Positions 42,517 through 62,065 of a stretch of 64,000 bases of DNA are shown here, one piece after another (within the stretch, counting starts at the first letter, position 1; the number at the start of each line of letters is the position of its first letter). The notes below the pieces were generated by a model. That model saw only the letters and a list, made by a program, of their open reading frames with translations. It did not search any database and was not told the DNA's origin. Both the position numbers and the translations under genes were made by a program. The stretch is from Verrucomicrobiota bacterium (GTDB lineage Bacteria; Verrucomicrobiota; Kiritimatiellia; CAJWTS01): positions 27,209 to 91,208 of the forward strand of contig JAQBYD010000006.1 in assembly GCA_027623315.1 (NCBI GenBank). The letters are read 5' to 3'.

Positions 42517-42525
42517 CTCACGCGT

Positions 42526-43320: not shown

Positions 43321-44522
43321 ATGTTAAGCTCTGCCAGCTCGTCGTCCGTCGCTCCCATGTGGCTCATCGCCGCAGCGATAATGTGCCTGCCGAGCGCATC
43401 GGGGGCAAGATGCCGGTCGAACGCGGTCTGGTTCTTGAGACGAATCTCCGCCCATCGCGAATCGGTAATCGAGGCGAGGAGATCCGGGATCTCGCGCCAT
43501 TCGCCCTCCGTGAACCAGATCTCAAAATCGTCCAGGCCGCAGTAGGGCATGAACTTCGGGCGGTCCATAAGGATGGGCGTGCCGCATACCATGGAGAGAA
43601 AACAGATCTCGCGCCAGCCCCAGTGCTTTCCGACGGCGTGAACATTTAGCCTGGACGATGCAAGCATCTGCTCGAAAGGCTCTTCGAAGGTCGCGCGTGA
43701 TTGAAGTAACGGCTCCGCGCGCCGCCACGATTCCGGTGAAAGCTGGTCGCGCAGCCATGCACGGTCGTAGTCATCGGTCACCTCGTTCAGTTCCCGTTCG
43801 ACGCGCCGATCGTCCGTGAGTGCCTCGACCACGTCGTGGAGCTGGGCCCGGTGTGCGGGTGAGGCCCAGAAGGTGTCCCGGACCACGATGTCGTATCGGA
43901 TCGGCAGGGAGCGATACGATTCGACCAAACGGTACCGAAGGTCGAAGCGCCTGTGTTCGGCATCACCGAGCGTAATCGTACGCGATCCCCGGCGCATGCT
44001 CCGCGCAAGAAGTCGTGACTTGAGCCACGATCCGAAATTCCGCCTATGCCGTGGAAAGTCGAGGGACATAGGCATGGGAATATAGGGCTGGACTTTACTG
44101 AACCACGCTCCGCAACTTTCGAGCGTGCTCTCGAAGCGACTCCTGAGCGTATCGACGGATTCCGTGTTCTGCCATGAATAGGGCTCGGGAAACTGCCGAT
44201 CATGGAACATCGAGGGATGATACGCGCTGCACAGGTAGAGGTCGACGTGCTGCATCGCCGGGGAGACAAAGAAAAAGCCTTCCGCAACGTCGACGATCAG
44301 AGTGCAGCGTCGCCCCTCCCATTCCACGACGATGAGACCGTGGCAACCGCGCAGAGACGAATCGATGTCGGGCGGCATGCCAAAATCGGGGGCGTCATCG
44401 GTGGCGATCTGCTTGAGCGGGATCCCGCGCCCCGCGGCGGCACGCGCGAGAGCATACTTGCTGTACCACGCGAGGCGTCCGGTCTCTCCGACCCAGGTAA
44501 TCGTTGGTGTCGATGACCGCAT
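43317..44522 (-). CDS. Hypothetical protein within the glycan locus (401 aa)
   Basis: Overlaps neighbours by 4 nt (operon context). No recognisable motif. Confidence 0.45.
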   Translation of the reverse strand: MRSSTPTITWVGETGRLAWYSKYALARAAAGRGIPLKQIATDDAPDFGMPPDIDSSLRGCHGLIVVEWEGRRCTLIVDVAEGFFFVSPAMQHVDLYLCSAYHPSMFHDRQFPEPYSWQNTESVDTLRSRFESTLESCGAWFSKVQPYIPMPMSLDFPRHRRNFGSWLKSRLLARSMRRGSRTITLGDAEHRRFDLRYRLVESYRSLPIRYDIVVRDTFWASPAHRAQLHDVVEALTDDRRVERELNEVTDDYDRAWLRDQLSPESWRRAEPLLQSRATFEEPFEQMLASSRLNVHAVGKHWGWREICFLSMVCGTPILMDRPKFMPYCGLDDFEIWFTEGEWREIPDLLASITDSRWAEIRLKNQTAFDRHLAPDALGRHIIAAAMSHMGATDDELAELNI

Positions 44523-44535
44523 GGCGATCAGCCGT

Positions 44536-45126
44536 TCAGCGTTGCCGACCGCCCTTGAACTGTCGGGTCAAGTTGCGCGCCGTGGATTTGACGCGGCTTA
44601 CCAGATCGGAGCGTCGTTGATTCGCGTGCGGAAACGGGTCCTCCGGAACGGGAAGATCGAGAAATGGGCACAGCTCGTCCCAGCCGTCTCCCGTCGTGAG
44701 GTTCAGCTCCAGAAGGTCGTCCGGTCGGTCCCGAAAGTAGCGATTCACATCGTCGTGGTGGCGGTGGTACGCAGCGGTAAATTTCTCCCGGTCGAAATAG
44801 ACGCTCTCGTAAAGCATCATACGACGCATCATGACGACGTCTTCTGCTTGTTCGTCGATCAGGTCGGTATGCATGTACTCGATCGATGCGAGCCACGCTT
44901 CCAGGTCGCGCATGAGAAGGATGAACTTTGATCCGGGAAAGCGGACGTCGAGATACTTGTAGAAAATGGTGCATCCGTTATCGGCTGCCCCGTCCAGATC
45001 TTTGAGTTCCTCGAAGGGCGGATTGTGCCGGACATTCTGGTAGCCCAGAATCTCCAGTGCCTTGCAAAAGGAATTGGTTCCTGTGCGTCCTAACCCAATG
45101 GCCCACGCCTTGTGTTTGATGCTCAT
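44536..45126 (-). CDS. Sulfotransferase family protein
   Basis: 196 aa. P-loop-like PAPS 5'-phosphate binding motif IGLGRTGTNSF. Size and motif fit bacterial Stf/Sulfotransfer_3-like enzymes. Confidence 0.6.
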   Translation of the reverse strand: MSIKHKAWAIGLGRTGTNSFCKALEILGYQNVRHNPPFEELKDLDGAADNGCTIFYKYLDVRFPGSKFILLMRDLEAWLASIEYMHTDLIDEQAEDVVMMRRMMLYESVYFDREKFTAAYHRHHDDVNRYFRDRPDDLLELNLTTGDGWDELCPFLDLPVPEDPFPHANQRRSDLVSRVKSTARNLTRQFKGGRQR

Positions 45127-46034
45127 TTTCGCTCTCCTGCCGCGTCCCGGGATTTCTTTTCGTCCGCAGCCAATCGCGACCAGACGCCGGCGTGATAGCT
45201 AACGCGGGCGTCGATCACGAACGGAAGGTACAAAATATACCTTGGATTGGCGCGCATAAACTCGGGGATCAGCGCCAATGAGACGATGAATGCGTAGGGC
45301 AGAATAAGAACCCAGTAGAAGCCGGGGTGTCGGAGCAAGATGGAGAGTTTCGCCAGCGCAGACATTTGGTCGCGGTGACGTGTCTGAACGATGAGACCCG
45401 AGCGAAAGCCGAAGTCCCACGCTGAGCGCATGATGCTTCGGTAGCGGTCGCGACCGTGATGATGGCGCACGGTGACGGCCGGCTCGAAGAGTGTGGCCCA
45501 GCCGCAGGCGTGCAAGCGGAAACAGAACTCCCAATCCTCCGATGCGCGCAGATCTTCGTCGAACCCGCCCGCTTCATCAAATGCCCTGCGCCGCACCGCC
45601 AGGGCCGCGGAGCCGAGATCCCGTCGGCCTCGCGTGACGAACTGGTATGGCGCGAATAGGGAAAAGTCCGCGCAACGGGACCAGAAGCCGGGAGGTCCGA
45701 CGACGCGGCAACCGACCGCACCCACATCGTCGGCATCATCCAGTGCCGCCGTGAGCGCGGCCGACCAGCCGTCGGGAACGACGCAGTCGTCGTCGACGAA
45801 ACAGATCGTCTCACCTTGGGCTGCCGCGACGCCCAGGTTGCGCATACGCCCGGGCGGGTAGACCGTATCGGTCTCGACAACGACAATCACGGCGCGGGTC
45901 TCGGGATCAAGCTCATCCGAGTATGGTGTAACGATCACGATCTCCTGCTCGACGCCTGCGTTTCCGGCGATCAACGACGCAACCGTCTGGCCAACCCGGC
46001 CGGGGCGGGTGGTGGGTATAATGACGCTGATCAC
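45123..46034 (-). CDS. Family 2 glycosyltransferase
   Basis: 303 aa. ISVIIPTTRPG..., FVDDDCVV (DxD), EDWEF. Confidence 0.8.
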   Translation of the reverse strand: MISVIIPTTRPGRVGQTVASLIAGNAGVEQEIVIVTPYSDELDPETRAVIVVVETDTVYPPGRMRNLGVAAAQGETICFVDDDCVVPDGWSAALTAALDDADDVGAVGCRVVGPPGFWSRCADFSLFAPYQFVTRGRRDLGSAALAVRRRAFDEAGGFDEDLRASEDWEFCFRLHACGWATLFEPAVTVRHHHGRDRYRSIMRSAWDFGFRSGLIVQTRHRDQMSALAKLSILLRHPGFYWVLILPYAFIVSLALIPEFMRANPRYILYLPFVIDARVSYHAGVWSRLAADEKKSRDAAGERK

Positions 46035-46050
46035 GGTAGACGCTTCAGGT

Positions 46051-47094
46051 TTACTCCGGAGACACCGCCGGAGCAGCCGCGCCGACGGTAGCGTGTTTTA
46101 CGAACGCGGCGGCGAGGGCAAGGCGCCGGCCCCGTGATGTCTCGACCTGCGGCGCGATTCTCGAATTGCTGTAGGCTGCGAGAATGTCGCGACCCAACGC
46201 AAGATTGTGAAAGCAGAGGCGGTACCACGCATCCGCGAGTTGCTGGTCAAACGCTGGTCCTGACTCCCCGGAGACATTCTTGCGCACCGTGATGAGGCGG
46301 CGCAGATGGGTTGTCGCCGCTTCGAATTCTTCGCGTGTCTTACATCGGTATCCCGGTCCCCGGCCCACGCGGCGGTGCCACAGCGCATCGTCGCCGGTCG
46401 GCCGTAGGCCCAGGCGCTCCAACTGGCGCTGATGAATTCGCGTGGCCTGGGTGTCCATTTCCGAACCGTCGCCCGTTGTCATGCTTCCGGCTCGAACGCG
46501 ATATGCGAGCAAGACGGCGGGGATGTTTGCGCATCGCACCTGGGGCACCAGGCGGTCCCAGAGGTCGTAGTCTTCAGCAGGGCAGAAACTCCCATCGTAA
46601 CGCATGCTATTCGGGTCAAGCGTTGCGCTCCTCCACATGACGCCAGGGTGGACAAACGGGCAGTCGAAGTAGACCGCCGCCTGGATGGCCGCATGGCTGA
46701 CGGGTGGCCGCAGTTGCGACGGTCTGCCGAGTCCGAAGGTGCGGGCCCAGGTTCCACAGAGCGCCACGTCGGGGTTCGCGTCCATAAAGGCGACTTGCTC
46801 GGCGAGGCGGCCGGGCAGGCTCACGTCGTCGGCATCCATACGGGCGACCAGGTCGCCCGTCGCCGCCCCGATGCCGTGATTCAGGGCACCGGCGAAGTGC
46901 ATCCGTGCTTCCGGTCGGAGCAGGCGAATGCGCGTGTCCTCGTAGGCCGCGACGATGGCGGCGCTGTCGTCGTCAGAGCGATCGTCAATGACCAGCAGTT
47001 CCCACTGCTGGTGCGTCTGCGCGAGGATGCTGTTGACCGCATCGCGCACGGTCTCGTGCGCGTTGCGCATCGGCATGATGATGGAGACTTGCAT
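46051..47094 (-). CDS. Family 2 glycosyltransferase
   Basis: The track ORF extends to 47517, but its N-terminal 141 aa are Arg/Pro-rich junk. ATG at 47094 gives MQVSIIMPMRNAHETVRDAVNSILAQT...LLVIDDRSDDDS...RMDADD, a canonical GT2. Confidence 0.75.
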   Translation of the reverse strand: MQVSIIMPMRNAHETVRDAVNSILAQTHQQWELLVIDDRSDDDSAAIVAAYEDTRIRLLRPEARMHFAGALNHGIGAATGDLVARMDADDVSLPGRLAEQVAFMDANPDVALCGTWARTFGLGRPSQLRPPVSHAAIQAAVYFDCPFVHPGVMWRSATLDPNSMRYDGSFCPAEDYDLWDRLVPQVRCANIPAVLLAYRVRAGSMTTGDGSEMDTQATRIHQRQLERLGLRPTGDDALWHRRVGRGPGYRCKTREEFEAATTHLRRLITVRKNVSGESGPAFDQQLADAWYRLCFHNLALGRDILAAYSNSRIAPQVETSRGRRLALAAAFVKHATVGAAAPAVSPE

Positions 47095-47102
47095 GGATCG
47101 GA

Positions 47103-47939
47103 TCACGCCTCTTCGGCGTTGCCGTGCCGCAGGCGCGTAAGCTTTGCCTGCAGTCCTTTGGGGAGGTGCTCGAAGACGCGATCCGCGATCGCCCCGAGGG
47201 CCGGGCGCATGGTGACCAGATCTCCGGAAAAGCGTCGCAGCGGGCTGTGTACGACGGCGCGGTAGCGGGTGCTGCGGTTGAGTCGTGCGGCCGAACCCGC
47301 GACATCGCCGACGCTTCCGTGGATGACCTTGACGCGTGCGCCATTTCCGAGGAATCCCGGCGCCAGTGTGCGCAGATTGTATTCCATCGGCAGGATCAGG
47401 AAGCGCAGCTCCGAGCGATAGAGCGCCTCGCGAAACGCATGCTGATCGTGGCGCGGAGTCTCGGGGCGAGTCATCTGGTCGGCATAGGTGCGCGGCCAAT
47501 CCTCGAGAAAGTCCCATACCGCATCGCTGCGACGGTAGCCAATGACGCCCGTGTTCGGCTCAGGAAAGGCATCGGGACAGTCCGCCACGGGATACGGATA
47601 CCGATTGGGTGCATAGGCGACGGTCACATCGAAGCGGAGCAGCGCTTCAAAAACATCGGCGATGCTTTCGCATACGTAGGTGTCGGTATCGAGCATGATC
47701 GTGCGCTCGTAGGGGGTTTCGCGCAGGGCGTGCATCTTGTCGAGGCAGGATCGCGTCACGTCGCGCAGGAGGACCGCGCTGTGAAAGGGACGGGGCGGGT
47801 CTTGCGCCGCGGACACATCGTCTGTGAAGAGCGTCAGCGGGGTCTCCGGCATCACGCGCATCACCGATTGCGCCGAGTCGATGGCTTCCTGGAGATGCCG
47901 CGGGCCGGTGGCGATGTAGATGATGCCCGTTTCAGTCAT
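47103..47939 (-). CDS. Putative nucleotide-diphospho-sugar transferase (GT-A-like, DxD)
   Basis: ATG at 47939 (MTETGIIYIATGPRHLQEAIDSAQSV...). IMLDTDTYV DxD-type motif. 8-nt overlap with the upstream gene. The family is not resolved. Confidence 0.45.
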   Translation of the reverse strand: MTETGIIYIATGPRHLQEAIDSAQSVMRVMPETPLTLFTDDVSAAQDPPRPFHSAVLLRDVTRSCLDKMHALRETPYERTIMLDTDTYVCESIADVFEALLRFDVTVAYAPNRYPYPVADCPDAFPEPNTGVIGYRRSDAVWDFLEDWPRTYADQMTRPETPRHDQHAFREALYRSELRFLILPMEYNLRTLAPGFLGNGARVKVIHGSVGDVAGSAARLNRSTRYRAVVHSPLRRFSGDLVTMRPALGAIADRVFEHLPKGLQAKLTRLRHGNAEEA

Positions 47940-48747
47940 CTTGCGCAGTCTCCAGCTCGGTCTCCCCGCGCGCATCGCGAACCCGTTTCTGAACGTCCTT
48001 TTCCAAGGCGTAGAGGTCTGGCGGCGGCCCGACCGACTTCTTGCCGGGCCGGGATTCGTTGACGCGATTGCGATGGTACACCAGGTACTGCAACCATCCG
48101 CGCAGGGACGGCCCAGGCAGCTCCAATTGTTTGATCAGAAATCGAAATCCACGCAGGCGCGAAATCCCGGCAAGCGTCACGCGCACGTAACGGCAACCCT
48201 GTTCGCGACAGAGGGTTTCGTAGACATCCGTACGCCTGGCCATTTCCAGGCAGTACCAGTAACAGACCTGGTAGTCATTCAACTCCCCGCCGCCACGGAT
48301 GGGCAGCACGTTCGGGTCATCCGGAGACAGGTAGAAGCGCAGCCCCTTGTCTGAGCGCCCGGGGATGGTGCCCAGTCCGACCATACTCAGCGCGACCTCG
48401 CGCGCGGGCCGCGAGAGCGCGACGATGTCCGGCCGCAGGCCAAGGTTCAGCATCGGCTCGAGGAATCCCTTGCAAAAGAGGTGGCTGGTTTCGACGTAGG
48501 TCGGCATGGGGGAGGCTGCCACACCGGTCAGCTTGCGTGAGAGGAGGAACTGCGTTGCTTCGGCCGGCGAACGTAGCGCGCTACGCATCACGTCCGCGAA
48601 CTCTGGAGCCGGCTCGTGGTGACTGTCGATGTGCGGTAAGAATTTGAAAAGTTCGGCCAGGTACGCCGTGCCACAGCGGCCGGTGGCCACACTGAAAATC
48701 AGCCTTTTGCCGGTGAGCCCTTCCGGCAGATCGGGGTGAGAGGTCAT
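47932..48747 (-). CDS. Sulfotransferase-like protein
   Basis: ATG at 48747 in ATGA overlap with the upstream GT4 stop (MTSHPDLPEGLTGKRLIFSVATGRCGTAYLAELF). The RCGT P-loop-like 5'-PSB motif matches Sulfotransfer_3-type enzymes. Confidence 0.55.
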   Translation of the reverse strand: MTSHPDLPEGLTGKRLIFSVATGRCGTAYLAELFKFLPHIDSHHEPAPEFADVMRSALRSPAEATQFLLSRKLTGVAASPMPTYVETSHLFCKGFLEPMLNLGLRPDIVALSRPAREVALSMVGLGTIPGRSDKGLRFYLSPDDPNVLPIRGGGELNDYQVCYWYCLEMARRTDVYETLCREQGCRYVRVTLAGISRLRGFRFLIKQLELPGPSLRGWLQYLVYHRNRVNESRPGKKSVGPPPDLYALEKDVQKRVRDARGETELETAQDD

Positions 48748-49868
48748 CGGGCTTCGTTTGCCAGTTCTGAGAAGAGCACGGCGTGTCGCTGCAGCCACTC
48801 TCGCACGTCAAAGAGCTCCATAGCGCGTGCGCGTGCGCGGGTCGAGTATCCCTCATAGTCCTCCATGATATTGCGCATCGCGTGTGCGAGAAGAATCGGG
48901 TCCGGAGGGGTGTCCACCGCAAAGTCGATGATTCCGGGGACGGCGAGCCCTGCGTCACGTCCGACCAGTTCGGGGACCCCACCGGTATCCGAATAGACCA
49001 CCGGCAGGCCGCACGACATGGCTTCTACCACAAGTCGCGGAGATGGGTCGTTGACCTTCGTGTGCAGGAGTAGATGGGAGTTCGACAGGACGGAGGCCGC
49101 GGCTTGTTGGGTATAGGGACCGATGATGGTGATATGGCCCTCCAGTTCAAGGTCGTTGATCATGGCGTCCAATTCACCGCGCGCCACGGACTCATCGCGG
49201 TGCCAGCACAGGCGCCCCGCGATCGTGAGGTGGATCTTTCCCCGGCCACGCAGGATGGATCGCGTGGCCTGCAGGGCACAGTCGAGGCGATAGCGACTCC
49301 AAAAACTTCCGGCGCACAGGACGCGCAGGCCGTCCGAGAGAGGTGGCCGGTCATCTGAGGGGAGGAAACGATCGGTGGGGACCGGATTGTGCCAGATCTG
49401 CCAGCCACAGGTCGGCGTGCAGAGGAACTCCTCGGCGGACAGTTTGCAGAATTCACTCTGGTATACCACGTGATCCGCGAGTTGAAGGAGTTCGCGCATC
49501 GGCGCGTTGGCTTCGTGCCAGCCTTTCCCGTACCAGCCCGGGTAGTGCACGCCGTTTTGGTTAATCACGATCTTCGCGCCCGCCTCCTTGGCCCAGGTCG
49601 CCATGCGCACCGGAAAGTAGGGCAGGGCACTGCTAACCAGGTAGAGGATATTTGCGCCGCATGGCGTGTTGGGAAACCGTTCGGCGAGATCCTGAAGTTT
49701 GATCAAGCCTCCGCCCGCAATCTCATCCACACCCGGAATCGTATCGTGTCCATAGAAGATATGGGGTTGACCGTCTCGCTGGATTTGCGACCAGCGCCGG
49801 CGTTCGCCGGCATGCGTCGTCAGTTTGATCCGGACAAGGTTGAGGCGGTCGAGCAACGTCTGTTTCAT
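48744..49868 (-). CDS. Family 4 glycosyltransferase
   Basis: 374 aa. C-terminal LLHTKVNDPSPRLVVEAMSCGLPVVYSDTGGVPELV (GT4 EX7E region). Confidence 0.8.
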   Translation of the reverse strand: MKQTLLDRLNLVRIKLTTHAGERRRWSQIQRDGQPHIFYGHDTIPGVDEIAGGGLIKLQDLAERFPNTPCGANILYLVSSALPYFPVRMATWAKEAGAKIVINQNGVHYPGWYGKGWHEANAPMRELLQLADHVVYQSEFCKLSAEEFLCTPTCGWQIWHNPVPTDRFLPSDDRPPLSDGLRVLCAGSFWSRYRLDCALQATRSILRGRGKIHLTIAGRLCWHRDESVARGELDAMINDLELEGHITIIGPYTQQAAASVLSNSHLLLHTKVNDPSPRLVVEAMSCGLPVVYSDTGGVPELVGRDAGLAVPGIIDFAVDTPPDPILLAHAMRNIMEDYEGYSTRARARAMELFDVREWLQRHAVLFSELANEAR

Positions 49869-51583
49869 GTCGATTCCTCCAGTAGACGACGGGCAAGATC
49901 AACGTACTGCATGGTGACTTCCTGAAAAGTTCGAACGTAGATCATCCGTCGGTAGACGCCGACCCGGTCGGCCATACGGTCGAGTTGGCCGAGTATATCC
50001 GATTCGTCGGTAAAGGGAAGCCCGGCGAACCCGACCAGCGTCGCATTGCCGCCTGTGTCACGGTAGAGCGCGGGGCAACCGCATGCCATGGCTTCCAGGA
50101 GTGCGTTGGAACAGGGCTCGTTCATGCTGGCCGATATGAAGATGTCGTGTTGTCGAAGCAGGGCCGCGAGACGTCGTGACGACACGGCGGGGACGTGCCG
50201 GATATTCTCGAACGTCTCCTGGGTCCGTCCGACAAAGGTGTAGTCGAAGCGATCCCAGTCCAGGTGTTGATCGAGCCACTTCAGCAGGGGTCCGCCCTTC
50301 AAGGGGTTTGGGGACCACGCAGAGGTAATCAGACGAATCTTGTCTCCGGTCCGTGTGGGCTTTCGTCCGTTCTGGTTGAAAATCACGTTGTCGACGCCGT
50401 TGATCAGAATCACCGGTCGAACGGCATCATATCCGATCTCGTGATGTTTCTGCATGCAGTACGGTGACTGGTAGACGGTGGCGTCGGCGTACTTCTGGTT
50501 GAAAGCGTGGATTTTGTGGTCTGCTTCGAAGTCGGCGTCGCGGTAGAACGCAACCGGGCCATCCACGCGATGGATCAGCTTGGGCTGGTGCTTGTCCAAT
50601 AGTTTTTCGAGCCGATCCGCGTTGAAGTTCGCCGAGTTGCAGATCACGACCGAGGACGGCCCGGCGAGGCGATTCGTGAGCACGCGCGCACCGAGGCGGG
50701 TCAGTTCTTTTCGTAGTGCGTTCATGAACTGATTCCCGCCGCCCCACGGAGGTCGATGGAACTCGTGCCATAGTGAGAACGTGAGCCCGAATCCCGGGCG
50801 ATGGGCAACCAGGGCGCGGCGCGCGCGATTCACGAACTGCCCGAGCGCTGCGGGGGACGCCCCGGCACGGGTGGCCGGCGCGCGTCGCGCTTGAACGGGC
50901 GGTACTCGGTCGAGTTCGGACAGCAATTTGCGCAGCGGACCGATCGCTGCACTTGGCGTGTGGAGCTCGCGGATGCGGGCCAGGTGCGCTGCGCAGGTTT
51001 GCGCCAGGTCGCCCGGACGCTCACAGAATGCATGAAGCTTTGCGAGGCCGTCTTCGAAACTGTCGAAGAAGCAGGTCTCATCGAGGATGTCGAGTGCGGC
51101 GCCGACGCGCGTGCAGAGGATTGGCGTCTGCGTCGCTGCGGATTCGAGCGCCGAGCGCGGTCCGCCCTCCCACCGACTGCTAATCAGGTGCAGGTCGGAG
51201 GCGTGGTAGAGCAAGTTCATCGTCTTGGCAGCGAGTACATTAAGCGGCATGTCATCATGCGTAGTCTCTTCGCCGACGAAAGTGAACGGGACGCCGCGGT
51301 CGCGCAGGCGTTCGCGAATCCAGTGCCTGCGAGGTCCCGCGAGCAGAACGTGGATCGGGTGCCCGGCCTCGAAGCACGCGGCGAGGAGTTCAAGCAGAAG
51401 CTCCGTGGCTTTCTGTTCCTTGGGGCGAGAGAGATCCGATCCCAGAGTGTCTCGCATGAAGTTACTGATAACGATTCGGTTCGGTGGAATGTCAAAGCGC
51501 TCACACAGCGCTTCGCGAGTCAATCCGTCCGGCGGTTGCGCGGTGAAGTGAGTCGGGTCAACGCAATAGTAGATGCGAAGCAT
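49865..51583 (-). CDS. Two-module glycosyltransferase (tandem GT-B/GT4-like halves)
   Basis: 572 aa. The first half ends with a GT4-like C-terminal region ([38 protein letters not shown]). The second half holds another one ([32 protein letters not shown]). Confidence 0.65.
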
Positions 51584-51589
51584 CGGCTT

Positions 51590-51802
51590 GCCCAGGTCGC
51601 TCAGGATCCTCGCCGCCTCGTCAAGCTGGGCAAGCAGTCACGCCCCAAAATAAAACTGGGCATCTGCGGCGAACACGGTGGCGACCCCAAGTCCGTGGAG
51701 TTCTGCCACCACGTCGGTCTGAACTACGTGTCCTGCAGCCCCTACCGCGTGCCGATCGCACGACTCGCCGCTGCGCACGCCGCGCTGAAGAGCACGAAAT
51801 AG
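51590..51802 (+). pseudogene. ppdK: 3'-terminal remnant (~65-70 codons) of pyruvate phosphate dikinase gene
   Basis: The + frame reads ...[62 protein letters not shown]. This matches the conserved PPDK C-terminus ([19 protein letters not shown].[24 protein letters not shown]). Everything upstream in this frame is antisense to the GT gene. The 5' boundary is approximate. Confidence 0.7.
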
Positions 51803-51823
51803 CCCCAGTCCCACAGGATTGCA

Positions 51824-51860
51824 AAAGCGCACGAGGTATACGCGCCTCGTGCGCTTTTTT
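51824..51860 (+). terminator. Rho-independent terminator downstream of the ppdK remnant
   Basis: aaaGCGCACGAGG-tatacgcg-CCTCGTGCGC followed by TTTTTT, 22 nt after the TAG stop. A perfect 10-bp GC-rich stem. Confidence 0.75.
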
Positions 51861-52256
51861 GTGTGCCGGTCCAAGCCCCTGCTGACCGTCGCGTGGGGTT
51901 GACTCGCAAACTTTTGTCTGCAATGGATGATCTGCGCCGAAAACTTCGTGCGATCACAGGTCGTTGCGTCACGATCTTGCGCTGCAGACCGCGGTTGATC
52001 GCGACCGGGATTTGAGCAGCGGCTGGTCAAAGCAGAATGCAAGCGTACCAAACCCGTCTGTTTTTCCCACAACCACAAAGCCCGAACAAGGCCATTTCAA
52101 TCCACTGAAGCTGTAGCACATATCCACGCATCGCGCTTAATGTGCGGCACTGCAGCGCTATAAAGCGATGAGTAGGCCCACGGTGCTGTCCGTCATGAGG
52201 ATAGGTAGAGCGTGGTCCGCTTTTCTTTTGGAGGAAAATGGTAACTACTCAGGTAG

Positions 52257-52271
52257 GCAGGGTTCAGGGTT
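52257..52271. repeat. Left arm of 15-bp perfect inverted repeat (cagggttcagggttc)
   Basis: Tandem heptamer agggttc x2. The exact reverse complement occurs at 52671-52685. Confidence 0.8.
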
Positions 52272-52283
52272 CGGGAGGAAGAG

Positions 52284-52676
52284 ATGGAAACGTATCGACG
52301 CTTAGAAGACTGGGTCGTCGATCAGAAACTTTGTCGTCTGCCCATTGAGATAGGCGCACTTACCCACCGGTGGCCAGCGGAGGAGAAGTACGATGATCGG
52401 CACGTTCGCAACACGATCGAGGGAGTCAACAGAAGCCGGGGAGAGGCGGCGGAGACTGTGCATCACCTGTACATGGCCCACCTCAAAGGATATGAAACTC
52501 AGACGACGCACGAGGAGTATCGCGTTCGATATCAGGAGTGCATCCGGATGCTCAACGATATGGAACGTACTCTTGAAAAGCAATTGCCGGAGTCCGAGCG
52601 TCGCTGGCCCAATGTGTCCGTGCGGGAAGATGGCGAAACCTATGGAGCCTCCGCTTTTGGATTTCCTGAACCCTGA
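52284..52676 (+). CDS. Small hypothetical protein (130 aa) bracketed by the inverted repeats
   Basis: ATG 52284 preceded by GGGAGGAAGAG, a strong SD. Charged helical protein METYRRLEDWVVDQKL... The stop codon TGA lies inside the right IR. Confidence 0.5.
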   Translation: METYRRLEDWVVDQKLCRLPIEIGALTHRWPAEEKYDDRHVRNTIEGVNRSRGEAAETVHHLYMAHLKGYETQTTHEEYRVRYQECIRMLNDMERTLEKQLPESERRWPNVSVREDGETYGASAFGFPEP

Positions 52677-52685
52677 ACCCTGAGT
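52671..52685. repeat. Right arm of 15-bp perfect inverted repeat (gaaccctgaaccctg)
   Basis: Reverse complement of 52257-52271. The two arms are 399 bp apart. Confidence 0.8.
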
Positions 52686-53013
52686 AGTTGCGGAAAATGT
52701 ATGCAAACGACATACCCGTGGCCGGCCAACAGACTCGCTCAGTTATTTAAAACCATTGCCCAAAATGAAAGTCTCAACGCAATCAACCTGATGAACAAGG
52801 GCAACGTAAACCTGATCCTGAATCGACCCAGCGGCACGGCAGCCTGTATTGCCAAAGTCAAAATGCGTTCGGAGGCTATATGGCGCAGTCTTCCGATTAT
52901 CATTACCGGGCCCGCGGCGCGAGCCGCTATTGATGCCAGTGGCTTTGTCCGGAAAAACGACGGGGTGTTTCCCGCATCCGGGAATACCTTGTTAGTCCTT
53001 AAAGGGTTCGGAC

Positions 53014-54195
53014 TTGTTCTTGCGGTCATGCATCGCAGGCACTATTTTAGACTCCGTGAATATCCTGACCGCATATGCATGGTTTAAGCCCACGGGCATG
53101 GGTTCACGCATGCACCGTACTATGGAGCTGCTGGCCGAGTACGGTCATGACGTGGATTGGGTCGGCGTGTCCCCGCCTCCGATAAAAAGCCGTCAACTGC
53201 ACTTCCACCGTTTGTTTGAATGGCATGACAGCCCCAATCACCGGAAGCTCTATTTCTGGTTCAGGTACCATGCCGCCGCGATCAATGCCTGCAACCGGCT
53301 CTCCCGATCGAAACCCTATGCCGGCTTTGTATCTTTTACGGTAAGCGCGGCCTTTCCTCTAATCCGTGCAGTCAAACGGTCTGACAAGCCGTTCATTGTA
53401 TTCATCCGGTCGAATGAGATGGTCGAAAACAGGATAAAAGGGGTGACGGCTCCTCTCCAGTGGCTGGTAAACAAAGCTTCGAAAAAGGTTATTGAAGCCG
53501 CCTCCACGCTTGTATTCGTGAATCAGACCCTGCTTGATCGCTACTGTGAAGCCTATGGACCCCACATACGAAAGCGGTCTTTGGTCCTGTACAATGATCT
53601 GCCTGAAGTTCCGTTAGCCGCGTCTTCCCACACATCTATACCGGAGGTTAAAAAGGCACCCCTTGCTGTCGTCTGCGGACGGCTTGATAAAAATAAAAAT
53701 ATCGCCCTGGTGCTGCGCGCTATGACGGGCGATATCGCCAATGCATGGCACCTGCTGATTGTTGGAGACGGACCTGAGCGCAGCGGACTGGAGGAGTTGG
53801 TTCAGTCATTGAACTTAGCGGAAAGGGTCAAGTTTGCGGGATGGAGCAATGATGCCCCTGGCCTGACGGCACAGGCTGACTGCTTTATTCTGCCTTCGTA
53901 CAGCGAGGGTGTTTCCAATGCGCTTCTGGAAGCGCTGGCATGCAAAAAACCCTGTCTCGTCAGTGACATCCCCGAACACCGGGAGCTTTTCCCTGACGGA
54001 GAGAACCTGTTCAATCCAGATCAACCCGAAACACTTTCCCGCATGCTGGCCGCCCTTTTTAGCGACGACCCATTGGCGGATCGAATCAGAGCCGCATGTC
54101 GGGAGGCTGAACTGTTATTCCCGACCGACTGGGATTCGGAAGCCTATCGCATTATTACCACGGCGATGAATTGCACTGAGAGTCATGGGATATGA
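53014..54195 (+). CDS. Family 4 glycosyltransferase
   Basis: The track start 53014 is TTG. Alternative starts are GTG 53056 or ATG 53098. The start is uncertain. C-terminal FILPSYSEGVSNALLEALACKKPCLVSDIPEHRELF (EX7E region). Confidence 0.7.
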   Translation: MFLRSCIAGTILDSVNILTAYAWFKPTGMGSRMHRTMELLAEYGHDVDWVGVSPPPIKSRQLHFHRLFEWHDSPNHRKLYFWFRYHAAAINACNRLSRSKPYAGFVSFTVSAAFPLIRAVKRSDKPFIVFIRSNEMVENRIKGVTAPLQWLVNKASKKVIEAASTLVFVNQTLLDRYCEAYGPHIRKRSLVLYNDLPEVPLAASSHTSIPEVKKAPLAVVCGRLDKNKNIALVLRAMTGDIANAWHLLIVGDGPERSGLEELVQSLNLAERVKFAGWSNDAPGLTAQADCFILPSYSEGVSNALLEALACKKPCLVSDIPEHRELFPDGENLFNPDQPETLSRMLAALFSDDPLADRIRAACREAELLFPTDWDSEAYRIITTAMNCTESHGI

Positions 54196-55343
54196 AGATT
54201 CTATATTTTCATACAGGCCGGGTAGAGGCGCGGCAGGCCAATCTTACTCAAACGCTACAGATGGTTACCGCGTTCACGGAACTGGGCCACGCAGTGACAT
54301 TAGCGTTGAACACATCGCGCTGCACCCAGGCAGAGGGTGAACAGATAGTGAAGGAGCAGCTCAATCTCACCGAACTGCCATTTCTGATCAAAATCTACAA
54401 AGGGCGGTCTCTATGTGGGCGGTTTCGATCTCTGGGCGCCGCGGATGCAGCCCTCAAGCTAAGCCAAGAGACCCGCTATGATTTCATTTTTGTTCGAAAC
54501 CCGCTTCCCTTGCCCCTTTTAAAGAAGGCCGCCTGCCCGGTGATATTTGAGGCGCACCATACAGACTGCTTCGATAAGCTCCCGTTTTTTGATTGGTGGT
54601 GGCGCCGTCGAATCGTCGCCCTGGCGTGCTCGGATCAAATGCCCGTTATGATTGCCATATCGCAGGCCCTTGCAAATTGGTGGACCGCGGCGGGTGTGCC
54701 GTCCAGTAAAGTGCTGGCGCTGCATGATGCCGTCAATCCGACCTTTATCCCGGCCGGTCTGGATCAGATGTCGGCCCGCAAAGAACTCGAACTTGCCGCT
54801 GAGCGACCTGTTGTGCTTTACGCCGGCAGTTTATATGCCGATCGGGGGGCTGACACAATTCTGCGTCTTGCGGATATGCGCAGGGATGCCTTGTTTGTTG
54901 TGGTGGGTGGACCTGAGGAAACAGCGAAAGCGTTAGCGGCGAAAGCGGAAAAGACACAAATTGAGAATATCCGTTTTGAGGGGCGTGTTCCTCATTACCG
55001 TATCGCGCACTATCTTGCGGCCGCCGATATTCTGCTCATGGTCTGGTCATGGAAGGTCAAAACCATTCATTACTGCAGCCCATTGAAATTATTCGAATAT
55101 ATGCTGGCTGAGCGTGAGATAGTCGGGCAGGCATTCCCGACTATTCTGGAGGTCATAGAGGACGGTGTGCATGCGCGACTTGCGGATCCGGACTCCTTCG
55201 AGGATTTAGTGGATAAGCTGAGCGGAGCGCTAGACCATCCGAATCCGGAATTAGCCCGGGCGGCACGCGTGCTGGTAATTCGGGAATATACCTGGCAAAA
55301 CCGTTGCAGGCAGATTATTGAAGCGTTTGAAGGACCCCTATGA
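54192..55343 (+). CDS. Family 4 glycosyltransferase
   Basis: 383 aa. MKILYFH... N-terminus, C-terminal GT-B region. ATGA overlap with the previous GT4. Confidence 0.8.
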   Translation: MKILYFHTGRVEARQANLTQTLQMVTAFTELGHAVTLALNTSRCTQAEGEQIVKEQLNLTELPFLIKIYKGRSLCGRFRSLGAADAALKLSQETRYDFIFVRNPLPLPLLKKAACPVIFEAHHTDCFDKLPFFDWWWRRRIVALACSDQMPVMIAISQALANWWTAAGVPSSKVLALHDAVNPTFIPAGLDQMSARKELELAAERPVVLYAGSLYADRGADTILRLADMRRDALFVVVGGPEETAKALAAKAEKTQIENIRFEGRVPHYRIAHYLAAADILLMVWSWKVKTIHYCSPLKLFEYMLAEREIVGQAFPTILEVIEDGVHARLADPDSFEDLVDKLSGALDHPNPELARAARVLVIREYTWQNRCRQIIEAFEGPL

Positions 55344-55345
55344 AA

Positions 55346-56245
55346 CTATGTCCCGGAATAGCCCAGTTTTCGATTCAGGGGGCCTGCTGTTCGCTCAAAG
55401 ACAGCTAAATCCTTTTCGGTCAGCCTGCTTTTCCATGTCTCTACATTTACGATTTTATCTTCACCGCTGAACCGCATCCTGTTTCCACCGATAAGGTGCC
55501 GCTCCCGGCCTCTTAAGTGCAGTATATCCTCTGTGTAGGGTTTTTCCAGAAAGTCTGCGAGTTCACGCATGGTACTTTCCGGGTCGCGGCAAAGATCTTC
55601 ATACCGCAGTGCTTTCAGGTTCATGGAAGGGCCGGATCTAAATATGGATCCCGCCATCCGGTTGTCGTGGAGCCATGTTTTGGCAGCACGCTCTGCCGGC
55701 ACCTCTTTACGCATGGCGGAGGCCATGACGGCGCGCCCATCCCGAATTAGATGAATCACCCGTGCATTGCGCGGGAGCCGGGTCCTCAACCATTGCGCTG
55801 TCATAATGGACTTCGATGAATCGACAACGGCCTCGGCGGGTGCCGTTTTCAGGACGGCATCATAGAGCCGGATCATATTTTTGAGGATTGCATCGCTGCC
55901 AAATCCGGCGCAGCCCTGTGGGTGAATGACCGCGGAAGCCAGCCGGGCATAAAAGCTGAGCTTCTGGAGTTGGTTGTTTCGCTCGGCTTCGAGGGAGAGG
56001 CGGAAGGCATTTATGGTTTGATCGGCCGCTGTATCCCCCGCCAGCCCCAGTTCGTCTAAAATGGGATTCCAGAAGGGGCATGTTTGCGGTGGTTTCCCGC
56101 AGGTGCAGTGTTCATGCGTTTTGAGGAACAGAGGCAGCCATTTCACTTCACCCAGCGAGACGGTGCCGGACATGTTTCCTATAAGCAAATCCAGAAGCGT
56201 GGATCCACTGTGCCCCGAACTGAAAATGTATATGTATCGAACCAT
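55346..56245 (-). CDS. Sulfotransferase (Sulfotransfer_3-like, P-loop 5'-PSB)
   Basis: ATG at 56245 gives MVRYIYIFSSGHSGSTLLDLLIGN, a PAPS 5'-phosphosulfate-binding loop. The track start at 56296 is GTG. 3'-PB-like RDGRAVMAS. Converges with the upstream GT4 (3-nt gap). Confidence 0.65.
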   Translation of the reverse strand: MVRYIYIFSSGHSGSTLLDLLIGNMSGTVSLGEVKWLPLFLKTHEHCTCGKPPQTCPFWNPILDELGLAGDTAADQTINAFRLSLEAERNNQLQKLSFYARLASAVIHPQGCAGFGSDAILKNMIRLYDAVLKTAPAEAVVDSSKSIMTAQWLRTRLPRNARVIHLIRDGRAVMASAMRKEVPAERAAKTWLHDNRMAGSIFRSGPSMNLKALRYEDLCRDPESTMRELADFLEKPYTEDILHLRGRERHLIGGNRMRFSGEDKIVNVETWKSRLTEKDLAVFERTAGPLNRKLGYSGT

Positions 56246-56317
56246 GTTCGCGTCAGTTCGAAATAGTAATGAAGTGCGTGGTCTGCTGCGGATCACTTCT
56301 TTCGAATAGCCTTTGCA

Positions 56318-58099
56318 TCATTCCGCATCAGTATCTGGTGAAGCCGGGCCGCTTTGCGCCAGCCTAAAGAAATAACCCTGTTGGGCCATAAGTTCATCAT
56401 AGGTCCCCTGCTCCACAACTTTCCCTGCATCAAAGACGAGAATCCGGTCGGCCTTGCGAACGGTTGTCAAACGATGCGCGATTACGATCGTGGTGACCTT
56501 GCCTTTAAGTTCTACGATGGCTTCCTGGATCTTTTTTTCAGAGGTCATATCCAAAGCACTGGTCGCTTCATCCAGTATAAGGATCTCGGGTTCTACCACG
56601 AGCGCCCTGGCCAGCGCAATGCGTTGACGTTCTCCCCCCGACAGACCGGCGCCATGTTCGCCCAGTACGGTTTCATATCCTTCCGGAAGGCGCTGAATAA
56701 ACGCATCCGCATGCGCCAAACGGCAGGCCTTTTGAATACGCTCCATGCTCAGGCCTTCGCTGCGGAAGTCCACATTCCGGGCGATGGAATCGTTGAGAAT
56801 GAAAGGGTCCTGCGATACGTAACCCATCTTTTTACGATAGCTGGTCATACTGAGGGTGGCCAGTTGATCGTTCCCGACCCTTATCTCGCCGCTGTTCGGC
56901 CGCAGAAGCCCCACGAGTAAATCCGCGGTTGTCGATTTTCCGGCTCCCGATCCGCCGACCAAACCGATCATGGCACCGGATGGAATATCGAAATTCAATG
57001 GGCCAATGCAATGCTCCTGCCCTCCCGATGCGTAGCGGTAAGTGACTTCCTGAAAGGAAATTCCATCGCCCACACTTTCAAAAGTGCGTCCTGCATTCTC
57101 GTCGGGATATTGATTGGATTTTAATTCGCTGATGTTTTCTTCAAAGACATCCAGAGCCGCCATGTGTCTGAGAATTTTGTAGTGCATGTTCTGAATCGTT
57201 CTCAGGGACTGATACATTCTGGCTGCCGCGACGATAAAGGCAAAAAAGATTGTGAGGTTGAAATCGAAAATGAGGTAGATCATCAGCGCCAGGACTATCA
57301 CCATTGGCTCAAAGATCGAATTGAGTGAACCTTCGGCTACAGCCAGCTTCAATTCGGTTCGACTATACCTGGACAGGGTCTTGTCCATGTGCCGCCCGAT
57401 GCCGTCTTCGCAGACGAAGCTTTTCATGACGCGGTAACCGCTGAGGCTATGATTTACGGTTTCCTGAATTTCAGCCTGGCAGGCCGCGACAGTATGCCCC
57501 CAGCGCCGTGCTGAGAGGAAAACCGATCGGATCAGGAAATAAATGACCGCAGAGAAGGCCAGTACAAAAAGAGAAAGTTCCCAGGATATCAGCACGACCA
57601 CAATAACCGAAAACAGGACATCCACGGCGGAGGTGGCATAGCGTGAGACGAAGTTCAGCAACCGGGAAATCATACGCGTTTGCGTCACGACGACATCCGT
57701 AAGTTTCCCGAAATTCCGGCTGTACAGAAAAGGAAGTTCCGCATGCAGCAGCGCATCCAGTGCGATGCGTTTCTTGTGACATTCCAGGCCTACCTCGACT
57801 GATTTCATCAGGGCATTCTGAAGCACCAACATGGCGGATCGTGCTGCGACAATGAAGAAGGTAACGATCAGGATGTTTTGAAAGGTAGGTTCAAGCCCAA
57901 TTCCGTTGAACAACCCGATGAACAGCCGCCCGAACAAGCTGTCCGGATTAGGGGCCTCGTCCATGAGTGCGGTCATCAGCGGGATAATGGCCGCAATACT
58001 CGCCCCGCCTAAAAAGCCGGTAAAAAGCAACAACAGAAAAATAATTGACAGCCTTAATCGGTAATATTTTAACCCGAGGCGAATTACATTGGCTATCAT
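56318..58099 (-). CDS. ABC transporter, fused permease/ATP-binding protein (type I exporter, MsbA/PglK-like)
   Basis: 593 aa. Six N-terminal TM helices, Walker A GGSGAGKST, signature LSGGERQRIALARAL, Walker B ILILDEATSALD, H-loop IAHRL. Confidence 0.85.
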   Translation of the reverse strand: MIANVIRLGLKYYRLRLSIIFLLLLFTGFLGGASIAAIIPLMTALMDEAPNPDSLFGRLFIGLFNGIGLEPTFQNILIVTFFIVAARSAMLVLQNALMKSVEVGLECHKKRIALDALLHAELPFLYSRNFGKLTDVVVTQTRMISRLLNFVSRYATSAVDVLFSVIVVVLISWELSLFVLAFSAVIYFLIRSVFLSARRWGHTVAACQAEIQETVNHSLSGYRVMKSFVCEDGIGRHMDKTLSRYSRTELKLAVAEGSLNSIFEPMVIVLALMIYLIFDFNLTIFFAFIVAAARMYQSLRTIQNMHYKILRHMAALDVFEENISELKSNQYPDENAGRTFESVGDGISFQEVTYRYASGGQEHCIGPLNFDIPSGAMIGLVGGSGAGKSTTADLLVGLLRPNSGEIRVGNDQLATLSMTSYRKKMGYVSQDPFILNDSIARNVDFRSEGLSMERIQKACRLAHADAFIQRLPEGYETVLGEHGAGLSGGERQRIALARALVVEPEILILDEATSALDMTSEKKIQEAIVELKGKVTTIVIAHRLTTVRKADRILVFDAGKVVEQGTYDELMAQQGYFFRLAQSGPASPDTDAE

Positions 58100-58180
58100 A
58101 TGAGTTATCTTTAACTGATGTTTACGGTCACTTGTCGTACGATCAAGCGGATGCGAAATGGCGGACTGTTTGAAAAAAAG

Positions 58181-59473
58181 TTAAAGGAGGTCTTCGGGCT
58201 TTCGTCCAGCTTTTAATATAATCTCAAGTGAGGCTAAAAAAATAAGTTGATTGGACAAATCAGCATGATTGTTCTGGTGTGTATTCCATATTTCATCCAA
58301 GTCCAACCAGTTGACAATGTTTCGTTTTTTCAAATCATTCAAATTCTCTCTCATTGAATCTCTGAGATCTTTCCTGCTTTGTATGGAGGTTTTGAAATCC
58401 AGATAGTTCAGCATCCTATTTCGAACAGCATTCGGCCTTTTTGACGGAAATTTTTTACGCAATATGTTGCCGGCATGTGCGCAGGCATAAGGCAGTTTGC
58501 CTGTCTTTAGTCCCAGGCCATAATGAGATTTAAGCGGGATGCGGCTCATTTCCGGAAAATATTCCAGAATCATACCTTTATACAGACTGCAATTTTTGCG
58601 ATGCACCCTGGGCAGGTTAGTGAAAAATGCCAGCACCTCGGGGTCTGAAAATGGCGTTTCAAAGCATAGTCCTTTATGTAGAACACTCGGCGCTATCAAC
58701 TTCGCCTGTCGGTTTGAAAAATCCCAGCATTCTTCAATTGAGAAAGTGGTACCTGTTGCATTATCCGGATAGTCGAGAAGTGAGACATACTGCTTATGCG
58801 CTAGTACGTCTAGGCGCAGATTGCTTGTTTTACGTCCCTCTTTTTCGAGAAAACGGTAAGCCGCCAGCGGCTTTGTTGGTGCTGGTGAATGAGGCATGCG
58901 TGACCCGGCGAGATAGTCACCAAGGAAACCAGACCAGACCCGAGTGTTACCATAGCGTTCAACAAGTTTTGTTACCGGAGCTCCATGATATACCTCTGTC
59001 TGTAAATCGAAAGCTTTGGCTTTTAGAACAAGAGACTCCGTATCGTAAGGGCATTCATGTAGCGATAACGGATTGTGTTCCACCCCGTAAAACCTAGCGA
59101 CCTGGGCGCCAATTTCAAAATCAAAAGATCCCGGAAGCCCATACGTGAAGGTTGTGACCTTCGCGGCGGGCACCTGCTCCATTAAAAGAGCAAGAATAAG
59201 CCTACTGTCTAATCCACCACTCAGCGGAACCGCCTGGATCTTATCGGTGTCCAGTCGTTTGTCGATGGAGTTGCGTATAAGATGAATAGCCGTCTGCTTG
59301 AGTTCCTGCGTCGTCGCATGCTGTATATCTGACCTTGGTCCATAAAAAGTTCTGAGCGCAGGCGGGCTGCAGTAATTCAGAAAATAGCCAAGCCGAAGGT
59401 AGGCGTTCAGGGAAAGACTGTTTTTGAAATCATCGGCCTGAACCGCTGGACTACCCCCATCCCATGTATTCAT
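58181..59473 (-). CDS. Asparagine synthetase-like amidotransferase (AsnB C-terminal synthetase domain only, no glutaminase domain)
   Basis: 430 aa. PP-loop SGGLDSRLILALL as in AsnB/WbpS-type enzymes. No N-terminal Cys glutaminase domain. Confidence 0.65.
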   Translation of the reverse strand: MNTWDGGSPAVQADDFKNSLSLNAYLRLGYFLNYCSPPALRTFYGPRSDIQHATTQELKQTAIHLIRNSIDKRLDTDKIQAVPLSGGLDSRLILALLMEQVPAAKVTTFTYGLPGSFDFEIGAQVARFYGVEHNPLSLHECPYDTESLVLKAKAFDLQTEVYHGAPVTKLVERYGNTRVWSGFLGDYLAGSRMPHSPAPTKPLAAYRFLEKEGRKTSNLRLDVLAHKQYVSLLDYPDNATGTTFSIEECWDFSNRQAKLIAPSVLHKGLCFETPFSDPEVLAFFTNLPRVHRKNCSLYKGMILEYFPEMSRIPLKSHYGLGLKTGKLPYACAHAGNILRKKFPSKRPNAVRNRMLNYLDFKTSIQSRKDLRDSMRENLNDLKKRNIVNWLDLDEIWNTHQNNHADLSNQLIFLASLEIILKAGRKPEDLL

Positions 59474-60492
59474 GGTGATACGGCCCCAGCATCTACAGTA
59501 CTTTCAATAAAGGTCTGCATTAAGCCGATATAATGTTCCCGATATTCTTCAAACGTATCCGGACGAACAAGGTGAGGACGTGTCCTATTCTCCGTGGGGT
59601 CCATTTCATTTGCGATAGATTTCCAAACATGTGTAAGAAAGTGCTTTCCATCATACGAGTTATCGGTGTCATAGGTCAACGCCCCTGGGGCTGAAAAATC
59701 GTAAAACTCATCCGCAATAATTGAAAGACGCCTTGCCACATGAAAAAATGATTCTTCGTTTTTGTAGTAATCCTTATATACTTCCCATGGACTTACGGGT
59801 GGAGCATAAAGAATGTAGTGTGCGTTGGGGAAAACTGAATGTAGCTCGTCATAGAGTTCCACCCATTCAATTTGATATTTTTGAGGACTAATTTTTCTGC
59901 GAAATGCTGGGCGATAAGGTTTGAGCCCGGGGATAGGCTGGCAGGCAAAGTTTTGGTCATAATATCGTTGTCCGGTTCTCGATGGAAATTGTCTGCGGAG
60001 GGTCTGTCGAGACCATTGAACAACATCCCAACTCATATAATTAGCCCATTTAGAGGGTGGTCGTTTGAACTCGTCAACCCAGTCGGGTACCTCACGCTGC
60101 GGGTCGCCATAAAAATTAAACATGGATGCTTCGACGAGAAGGACCTTGGGCTCATATCCTTTACTCTTTAAGTAGCGCGCATACGCTATAAACTCCCTGA
60201 TTCGTCCTGCACTGAATGACAAATTAAACGAATCACCACCACAGAAATCACGCTGATCAAGTAAAGTCGTTCTGGAGCTCCCAAGGATCAGGCAGGCAGG
60301 ATCGGATTTCCGGCGTTCGAAAAGATAAATTTTTGTTAGTCTCTCGTTAAAAGCAATATTGGTGTCAAAGAGCTTATTGCCGCCAAAGGCCCACAGCGGA
60401 TCCACCACCAGGTTAAACCCCACCACGGCGCCCAATCCAATGACTAGCAGTCCACATAGAACACAGGCATATACTTTGAAAGAATTACACAT
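59470..60492 (-). CDS. Membrane-anchored hypothetical protein, possible DltD/AlgJ-like O-acyltransferase partner of the MBOAT
   Basis: 340 aa. N-terminal anchor MCNSFKVYACVLCGLLVIGLGAVVGF. CLILGSSRT resembles the DltD GSS block. 1-nt gap, in line with the MBOAT gene. Assigned mainly from context. Confidence 0.4.
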   Translation of the reverse strand: MCNSFKVYACVLCGLLVIGLGAVVGFNLVVDPLWAFGGNKLFDTNIAFNERLTKIYLFERRKSDPACLILGSSRTTLLDQRDFCGGDSFNLSFSAGRIREFIAYARYLKSKGYEPKVLLVEASMFNFYGDPQREVPDWVDEFKRPPSKWANYMSWDVVQWSRQTLRRQFPSRTGQRYYDQNFACQPIPGLKPYRPAFRRKISPQKYQIEWVELYDELHSVFPNAHYILYAPPVSPWEVYKDYYKNEESFFHVARRLSIIADEFYDFSAPGALTYDTDNSYDGKHFLTHVWKSIANEMDPTENRTRPHLVRPDTFEEYREHYIGLMQTFIESTVDAGAVSP

Positions 60493-62042: not shown

Positions 62043-62065
62043 ATCACCGGCGACCCAATTGGAAA

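Follow-up and report, generated by a model that had tools for sequence, protein, structure and literature searches.

A 183-base fragment of ppdK, the gene of pyruvate phosphate dikinase (PPDK, EC 2.7.9.1), lies on the plus strand of the 64,000-nt stretch of DNA analysed here (the window), at the border of two blocks of glycan genes. This stub holds the last 60 codons and the TAG stop of the gene, some 7% of the ~880-900 aa of a PPDK, and ~93% of ppdK is gone. On its left, a minus-strand glycosyltransferase (GT) operon begins with a truncated gene, and on its right a predicted intrinsic terminator precedes a block of lower GC content (Table 1).

Table 1. Features at the ppdK stub and on either side of it, in window coordinates.
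Feature	Position	Strand	Basis or content
Rest of the left glycan operon	41368..49868	-	GT4, two unknowns, GT2, GT2, sulfotransferase, unknown, GT2, GT4
5'-truncated tandem GT4	49865..51583	-	572-aa ORF corresponding to residues 114-685 of the intact protein
Stranded GT coding sequence, codons ~101-113 of the 685-aa gene	51584..51623	-	Upstream of the first usable ATG; TGA 51640-51638 closes the frame
Joint of GT-derived and ppdK-derived DNA	51620..51631		Alignments with the intact-GT contigs L085, L086 and L087; start of PPDK homology
ppdK 3' remnant (stub)	51620..51802	+	Pfam PF02896, tblastn, invariant C-terminal residues
H2/H3 divergent segment	51739..51802	+	13 substitutions in 64 nt (~20%)
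Predicted intrinsic terminator of the former ppdK	51823..51860	+	A4, 10-bp GC-rich perfect stem, 8-nt loop, T6
Right-hand lower-GC block	51861..64000		GC 55% falling to 47%

The stub matches the Pfam family PF02896 (PEP-utilizers_C; profile positions 245-291 of 293, E 2e-12), and tblastn with ten full-length PPDKs from different phyla against the window gave E values of 1e-18 to 1e-23 solely at this place, the next-best match elsewhere in the window (E 0.04) being not significant. The tblastn match starts at 51620 for six of the ten queries and between 51611 and 51629 for three more. All 36 invariant columns of the PPDK C-terminal alignment are preserved, including the ICGEHGG motif, and the stop codon (51800-51802) and the terminator stand at their native position. 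With significant, collinear similarity to the PPDK C-terminus up to the native stop, the stub is a ppdK-derived fragment. It codes for the conserved strands at the C-terminal end of the PEP/pyruvate-binding domain but lacks ~85% of that domain and the whole of the nucleotide-binding and phospho-histidine domains; neither PF01326 (ATP-grasp, nucleotide-binding) nor PF00391 (phospho-histidine swivel) is matched, and the stub is therefore no enzyme gene. Its base composition is host-like (63% GC, with GC-rich third codon positions), and no disabling mutations were seen in it.

A preliminary description of this DNA, made from the letters alone, had read the last ~65 codons of ppdK on the plus strand from 51590 onwards. 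The identity stands and the similarity is genuine; the remnant is shorter, 60 codons from 51620, because 51584-51623 is GT-derived. Nor does the similarity run through the whole plus-strand ORF 50801-51802 (333 aa), which is mostly antisense to the GT gene and resembles the family over its last 60 codons only; the rest of this ORF is spurious and not a gene.

The search for further pieces of ppdK covered the 64-kb window, 8 kb beyond it and the contigs of the intact haplotype, and tblastn with the ten full-length PPDKs found none over 51 kb on the left of the stub and 20 kb on its right. When genome contigs were scanned with the stub, the at least 600 matches listed comprised only 63-82% identical PPDKs from many phyla, with no intact ppdK of the stub's own species among them; loci from this listing served as full-length PPDK queries. 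Likewise, no near-identical intact PPDK was found among the best 120 of at least 8000 protein matches, all of them short fragments of at most 89% identity, in a search where a contig-end fragment overlapping the stub by fewer than 20 residues would not rank. Short proteins labelled as PPDK C-terminal are numerous in the protein collection, e.g. P0111 (68 blocks) and P0055 (from a 6.9-Mb genome), and proved to be pieces of full-length genes (L094, L095-L098). Orphan ppdK ends recurring elsewhere were considered on account of P0055 and P0111 and rejected, as both belong to full-length genes split by frameshifts or a run of 10 N. Such a run inside a conserved region splits ppdK in L096, and probably in L097 too, where the same run of X appears in the translation.

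The hairpin begins 21 nt past the TAG. Its arms, AAAAGCGCACGAGG (51823-51836) and CCTCGTGCGCTTTT (51845-51858), are 14 nt long and 100% complementary and are followed by T6; the segment 51800-51870 folds at -32 kcal/mol (z -4.1 relative to shuffled sequences). These features are those of an intrinsic (Rho-independent) terminator, for which termination activity is predicted, in agreement with the preliminary description. The hairpin is strong on both strands and looks bidirectional, with a minus-strand tail of only UUUU.

To the right of the stub, the GC content falls from 63% to 55%, 53% and finally 47%. The right-hand block includes a 423-nt spacer (51861-52283) and carries on its plus strand a gene for a four-helix-bundle protein, an unknown gene and two GT4 genes, and on its minus strand genes for a sulfotransferase, an ABC exporter, an AsnB-like protein, an unknown protein, an MBOAT protein and a SASA protein, with NeuB and a CMP-sugar synthetase beyond the end of the window. 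The segment 55346-64000, continued by L104:1-8043 (equivalent to 64-72 kb), has the content of a nonulosonic-acid-type glycan cluster with a SASA esterase, NeuB, a CMP-sugar synthetase, MBOAT, an AsnB-like amidotransferase, a sulfotransferase and a fused ABC exporter, its GC content declining from 53% to 47%. When metagenomes were scanned with a right-hand GT4, one match of 32% was obtained in a collection that does not hold these samples; a fully degenerate 32-codon pattern gave no match there, the JGI contig known to carry the sequence included.

The truncated glycosyltransferase and its joint with ppdK

The 90%-identity cluster of the 572-aa GT also holds 685-aa versions (P0122, P0124) with 113 more N-terminal residues. 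The 18 residues translated from the minus strand upstream of ATG 51583 align with residues 97-114 of the full-length GTs, the nucleotide sequence of 51584-51623 is 98% identical to L087, and DNA homology to the intact GT genes passes ATG 51583 and reaches 51622-51631. ATG 51583 is thus an internal codon, Met114 of the long GT, and not the native start of the gene; residue 114 is Val (GTG) in L085 and L089. Compared with P0122, P0124, L087 and L089, the first GT module is incomplete. Pfam places its donor-binding half at residues 169-281 of the intact protein, and residues 1-113 of the ~165 residues of the N-terminal half are missing, a loss of about two thirds of that half, while the second GT-B module is complete (Pfam). 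No Shine-Dalgarno-like sequence precedes ATG 51583, and NCBI annotators picked differing starts, giving proteins of 572 aa and 530 aa. The exact 572-aa protein occurs on several contigs of Verrucomicrobiota MAGs and in metagenome assemblies from ENA, JGI and Logan.

In the relatives, the long GT is not the first gene of its operon. On the P0122 and P0124 contigs another gene precedes it on its strand, and the stop of the one overlaps the start of the other. A 16.6-kb Logan contig (L089; ~74% nucleotide identity to the window) has the order MarR-like gene, ABC exporter (614 aa), methyltransferase-GT2 fusion (579 aa) and GT685, followed by GT4, two unknowns, GT2, GT2 and sulfotransferase, which is the order of the window from 51.6 to 43.6 kb. 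Relative to the intact locus, the window operon is missing the first ~100-113 codons of the GT, the methyltransferase-GT2 gene, the ABC exporter and the promoter region, and relative to L089 also the MarR-like gene. The remainder of the operon is intact and collinear with the relatives in genes and Pfam content (L001 and L002 against L089 and L085), and the downstream genes are all full length. The view that ATG 51583 starts the minus-strand operon, taken in the preliminary description, is thus at odds with the 685-aa GT of the relatives and its same-strand upstream genes. Having lost its native promoter region and GT start, the truncated operon is probably weakly expressed or silent. For annotation, the 572-aa GT should be treated as 5'-truncated and not as the first gene of the operon, and the left operon as one without its exporter, methyltransferase-GT2 gene and promoter region.

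The joint can be placed within a few bases. Read on the plus strand, the sequence is certainly GT-derived up to ...CCTCGTCA (51623) and certainly ppdK-derived from GTCAAGCTGGGC... (51620), so that GTCA (51620-51623) is common to both parents as an overlap of 4 nt. CTGGGC (51626-51631) is also present in the intact GT gene, and 10 of the 12 positions over 51620-51631 therefore match, an imperfect microhomology; the homology to L089 stops at 51622. Codon ~101 of the GT on the minus strand is fused head to head with the last 60 codons of ppdK on the plus strand. A single illegitimate joint has thus cut the 5' parts off both the GT gene and ppdK, together with the promoter-proximal part of the operon.

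An ENA scaffold of 100 kb, an unbranched Logan contig (46038-52682) and the JGI contig L002 span the joint identically, and the accessions of the GT and the four-helix-bundle protein follow one another directly in one NCBI MAG. The joint is real and not an assembly chimera, because an overlap of 4-12 nt is far below k-mer length and independent assemblies span it. In the part of the window from 39.8 to 64 kb and on to the window-equivalent of 72 kb, there is no Pfam match to an IS, transposon or integrase protein. No tRNA gene lies at the borders, the sole one of the window being at 6514-6588, and no direct repeats or target duplication were found flanking the joint.

Three versions of the locus

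Contigs from several sources reveal three versions of the locus, in which the left block is 98-100% identical and the right side wholly different. The intact version (H1), with the ABC exporter, the methyltransferase-GT2 gene and the full 5' end of the GT, is found on L087 (NCBI JAQBYI010000065.1) and L088 (ENA ERZ23495043 scaffold_7094), and the assembly ERZ23495043 also contains the window-type scaffold_355. The final 148 nt of L087 correspond to window 51631-51484 with 98% identity, and L088 terminates 55 nt beyond the position of the joint, as expected at merging graph paths. Despite this 98% end match to a Verrucomicrobiota window, JAQBYI010000065.1 has been binned as Gemmatimonadetes (GC 60.6%), which is probably a binning error arising from the graph branch. 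The second version (H2) is that of the window and is also found on L104-L106. The third (H3), on the JGI contig L002, is identical to the window over 39865-51738 bar one SNP, has the identical joint and carries a different right module. Position 45918 is the only left-block SNP among the compared contigs, with the window and L004 (Logan) on one side and L001, L002 and L003 on the other.

The differences between H2 and H3 set in abruptly. There are no substitutions in the 119 nt of 51620-51738 and one in 11.8 kb of the left block, as against the dense substitutions of the divergent segment (Table 1). In that segment, which offers 17.3 synonymous and 45.7 non-synonymous sites, 11 codons differ, nine of them synonymously and two non-synonymously, the latter among the unconserved last three residues. 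The hairpin also has an orthologous, diverged counterpart in H3, which still folds at -35.5 kcal/mol (z -6.7); the two terminators have the outer stem in common (AAAGCGCACG...CGTGCG-T run), differ in inner stems and loops, and both fold strongly. The divergent segment marks a recombination boundary within ppdK sequence. As the divergence is biased to synonymous sites and each end has its own terminator, the two ends must have diverged inside working ppdK genes and have been joined by homologous recombination in ppdK. This implies that ppdK is, or was, a conserved flank of a replaceable glycan island in this lineage.

Beyond the terminator, H3 encodes a 701-aa membrane protein and a GT2 that are dissimilar to anything in the window. 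No re-convergence of the right sides was found, following H2 to the window-equivalent of 72 kb and H3 for 3.9 kb, apart from a 66%-identical GT2 paralogue in opposite orientation. The 3.9-kb H3-specific segment is also present as a separate contig in the ENA assembly containing H2 (L092) and in a Logan run (L093). The right side of H2 likewise occurs on contigs that end inside the stub (L105, L106), and the NCBI contig L003 begins at 51687. The contig ends from ENA, Logan, JGI and NCBI sources all fall within 51660-51709, indicating that a branch of the assembly graph lies inside the stub.

It is possible that the H3 end belongs to an intact ppdK elsewhere, e.g. that of H1, and was mis-joined through the shared 119-nt node, because H2 and H3 cannot be told apart in their left blocks and the node is so short. 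The link of the H3 end to the joint comes from the JGI contig L002 and from a 93-kb contig listed simply as a similar place; both argue against a mis-join without settling the matter.

Since L092 and L093 have the same size, a circular or repeat-flanked H3 segment was considered and rejected, as terminal overlap is absent. Homologues (39-44% identity) of the 701-aa protein, whose gene adjoins the stub in L002, stand beside a GT2 in glycan clusters and never beside ppdK, which is uninformative here. A divergent pair formed by a GT2 (~300-330 aa, with a C-terminal membrane part) and a ~700-aa multi-pass membrane protein without a Pfam match (L002:451-3799; L100-L102) recurs in glycan clusters of several metagenomes. 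The pair may constitute a module of a lipid-carrier GT and a GT-C-like transferase.

Origin of the joint and present role of the stub

The explanation that best covers the whole locus, to which we give somewhat better than even chances, is that of a non-functional ppdK relic with its terminator, left at one illegitimate recombination joint. According to this explanation, ppdK would have been the conserved flank of a replaceable glycan island beside the GT operon, and all DNA between the GT and ppdK would have been lost in a microhomology-mediated deletion of some 20 kb. If ppdK lay upstream of the operon, the observed structure would follow from one deletion that begins at GT codon ~101 and ends at ppdK codon ~-60. 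Homologous recombination in ppdK brought together two alleles of its end, each with its own terminator and glycan module, and the event is too recent for decay to show. It is recent because the downstream genes are full length and the left block is identical among the versions; the lack of decay is for this reason uninformative on function.

We consider a deletion most likely, and prefer it to an import, because the GC content of the stub is host-like, because a related donor would use an intact ppdK flank, and because adjacency of ppdK and the operon, which we infer, explains the pair of genes found at the joint. There is no ppdK in the 12 kb (L087/L088) or 6.5 kb (L089) seen upstream of the intact operon, where further glycan genes are found, and the deletion would accordingly exceed 12 kb. 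The H1 scaffold L088 measures 20.1 kb, of which 12 kb were seen, and the remaining 8 kb could hold ppdK.

The main alternative, to which we give a tentative place as possible and rather doubtful, is an import with one illegitimate end, i.e. homology-facilitated illegitimate recombination. A fragment from a related strain, consisting of the 183-bp end of ppdK, the terminator and the lower-GC module, would have recombined homologously at its right end while its broken end joined the GT, so that the 5' part of the operon was replaced and ppdK was never a neighbour. The fall in GC content to the right of the stub, the large unrelated right-hand gene sets of strains with the same left block, and the lack of ppdK within 12 kb upstream of the intact operon all fit an import. 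Illegitimate joints at microhomologies of 3-10 bp are documented, and the 4 nt found here (10/12 in the imperfect match) are within that range (PMC6382021). As in the known process, a microhomology links two coding sequences that are unrelated, and the DNA that lay between them or was replaced is lost; the present case differs in that no anchor segment was identified, and deletion and import are indistinguishable on these contigs. Against an import, the host-like GC content and GC-rich third positions of the stub would make the donor a close relative, which would normally recombine via the intact ppdK flank, without an illegitimate end; moreover, no homologous anchor was seen on the right, and a plain deletion yields the same joint.

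Whichever way the joint arose, the stub almost certainly does nothing now and is an ordinary, non-functional scar. It is unlikely that stub and hairpin have been co-opted and kept as an insulator, as the truncated operon's promoter or 5' leader, or as a homology anchor for swapping the right-hand module, even though the hairpin is strong on both strands, the stub is free of disabling mutations and, should the H3 linkage be real, at most 119 bp of stub sequence sufficed for a crossover. The insulating role that the preliminary description gave to the terminator, as a barrier between two divergent modules, is unsupported by the geometry: no plus-strand transcription would enter from the left, where ~10 kb of minus-strand genes lie, and the nearest right-hand genes (52284-55343) point away. 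On the minus strand, transcription from a promoter in the 51861-52283 spacer would have to pass through the hairpin before it reached the truncated, promoter-less operon. In 51000-53000, no Rfam element was found and a promoter scan gave no sigma-70-like site on either strand, the latter being uninformative for this phylum. In addition, the recency of the event, with a left block identical across versions, explains the missing decay, and the synonymous bias of the divergence would be a legacy of functional ppdK genes and not of selection on the stub. In an extended form of the anchor reading, crossovers confined to at most 119 bp make the stub a miniature homology anchor for ongoing exchange of glycan modules between co-occurring strains, the beheaded operon being re-wired to the incoming module with its own ABC exporter to yield a hybrid surface glycan. 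This too is improbable; if true, glycotype switching would have a natural cassette adaptor in the stub.

The model of the preliminary description, in which an intact ppdK received an insertion, either of the 36-51.6 kb block or of the low-GC block, is very improbable. The stub does sit exactly between glycan blocks of unlike GC content, and the orphan ppdK end does mark a rearrangement at their border, as proposed; this part of the description is borne out. After an insertion, however, the 5' part of ppdK should lie on the far side of the insert, and none is present in 1-64000 or up to the window-equivalent of 72 kb. A simple insertion would not explain why the adjoining GT is also truncated, and the borders show no integrase, transposase, tRNA or target duplication. 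Nor is 36-51.6 kb one block, since RhaA and a GH-like gene lie at 37-41 kb. Least credible of all is a chimeric contig join, as the several contig breaks inside the stub are accounted for by the H2/H3 and H1 branches, the parents share far less than any assembler k-mer, and the ENA, Logan and JGI contigs and the NCBI MAG agree.

The locus is comparable to the replacement flexible genomic islands of aquatic bacteria, in which glycotype or O-chain islands are exchanged by homologous recombination in flanking genes and substitutions, most of them synonymous, peak at the border within the conserved gene that flanks the island (Lopez-Perez, Martin-Cuadrado and Rodriguez-Valera 2014, PMC4033161). 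Here as well, an identical left block is combined at one locus with unrelated glycan gene sets of similar function, several of them from the same assemblies (with the reservation that the H3 linkage may be a mis-join), and a sharp, mostly synonymous peak of substitutions lies at the border in ppdK sequence. The difference is that the flanking gene has shrunk to a relic of 183 bp joined to a truncated GT, the border having been damaged by the illegitimate event. In the O-antigen and capsule loci of enterobacteria and pneumococci, past recombination has left truncated genes and orphan terminators at cluster edges, and IS elements or conserved JUMPstart-type sequences of 39 bp are frequently involved; neither was seen here.

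We therefore regard the locus as a new instance of known things, namely a gene remnant and the exchange of glycan islands, and not as a new kind. It is unusually well resolved, with the intact parent arrangement, a joint mapped to the base and a second border allele all available in assemblies of the same samples. Its main value lies in correct annotation and in a clean field example, provided by an aquatic Verrucomicrobium that is uncultured; the locus supports current models of how glycan islands turn over and opens no new question.

A few further observations concern other parts of the window. The left third holds two giant ORFs, at 6765-13463 on the minus strand (2232 aa) and at 19138-27105 on the plus strand (2655 aa). 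The gene for the four-helix-bundle protein (52284-52676) has a sub-threshold match to PF05635 (23S rRNA intervening-sequence protein), and a member of its 90% cluster (P0140) is found in an unrelated cytochrome b/Rieske context. The gene is bracketed by 19-nt inverted repeats (52258-52276 and 52664-52682) that are 95% complementary and consist of CAGGGTT heptads, an arrangement that resembles a small cassette.
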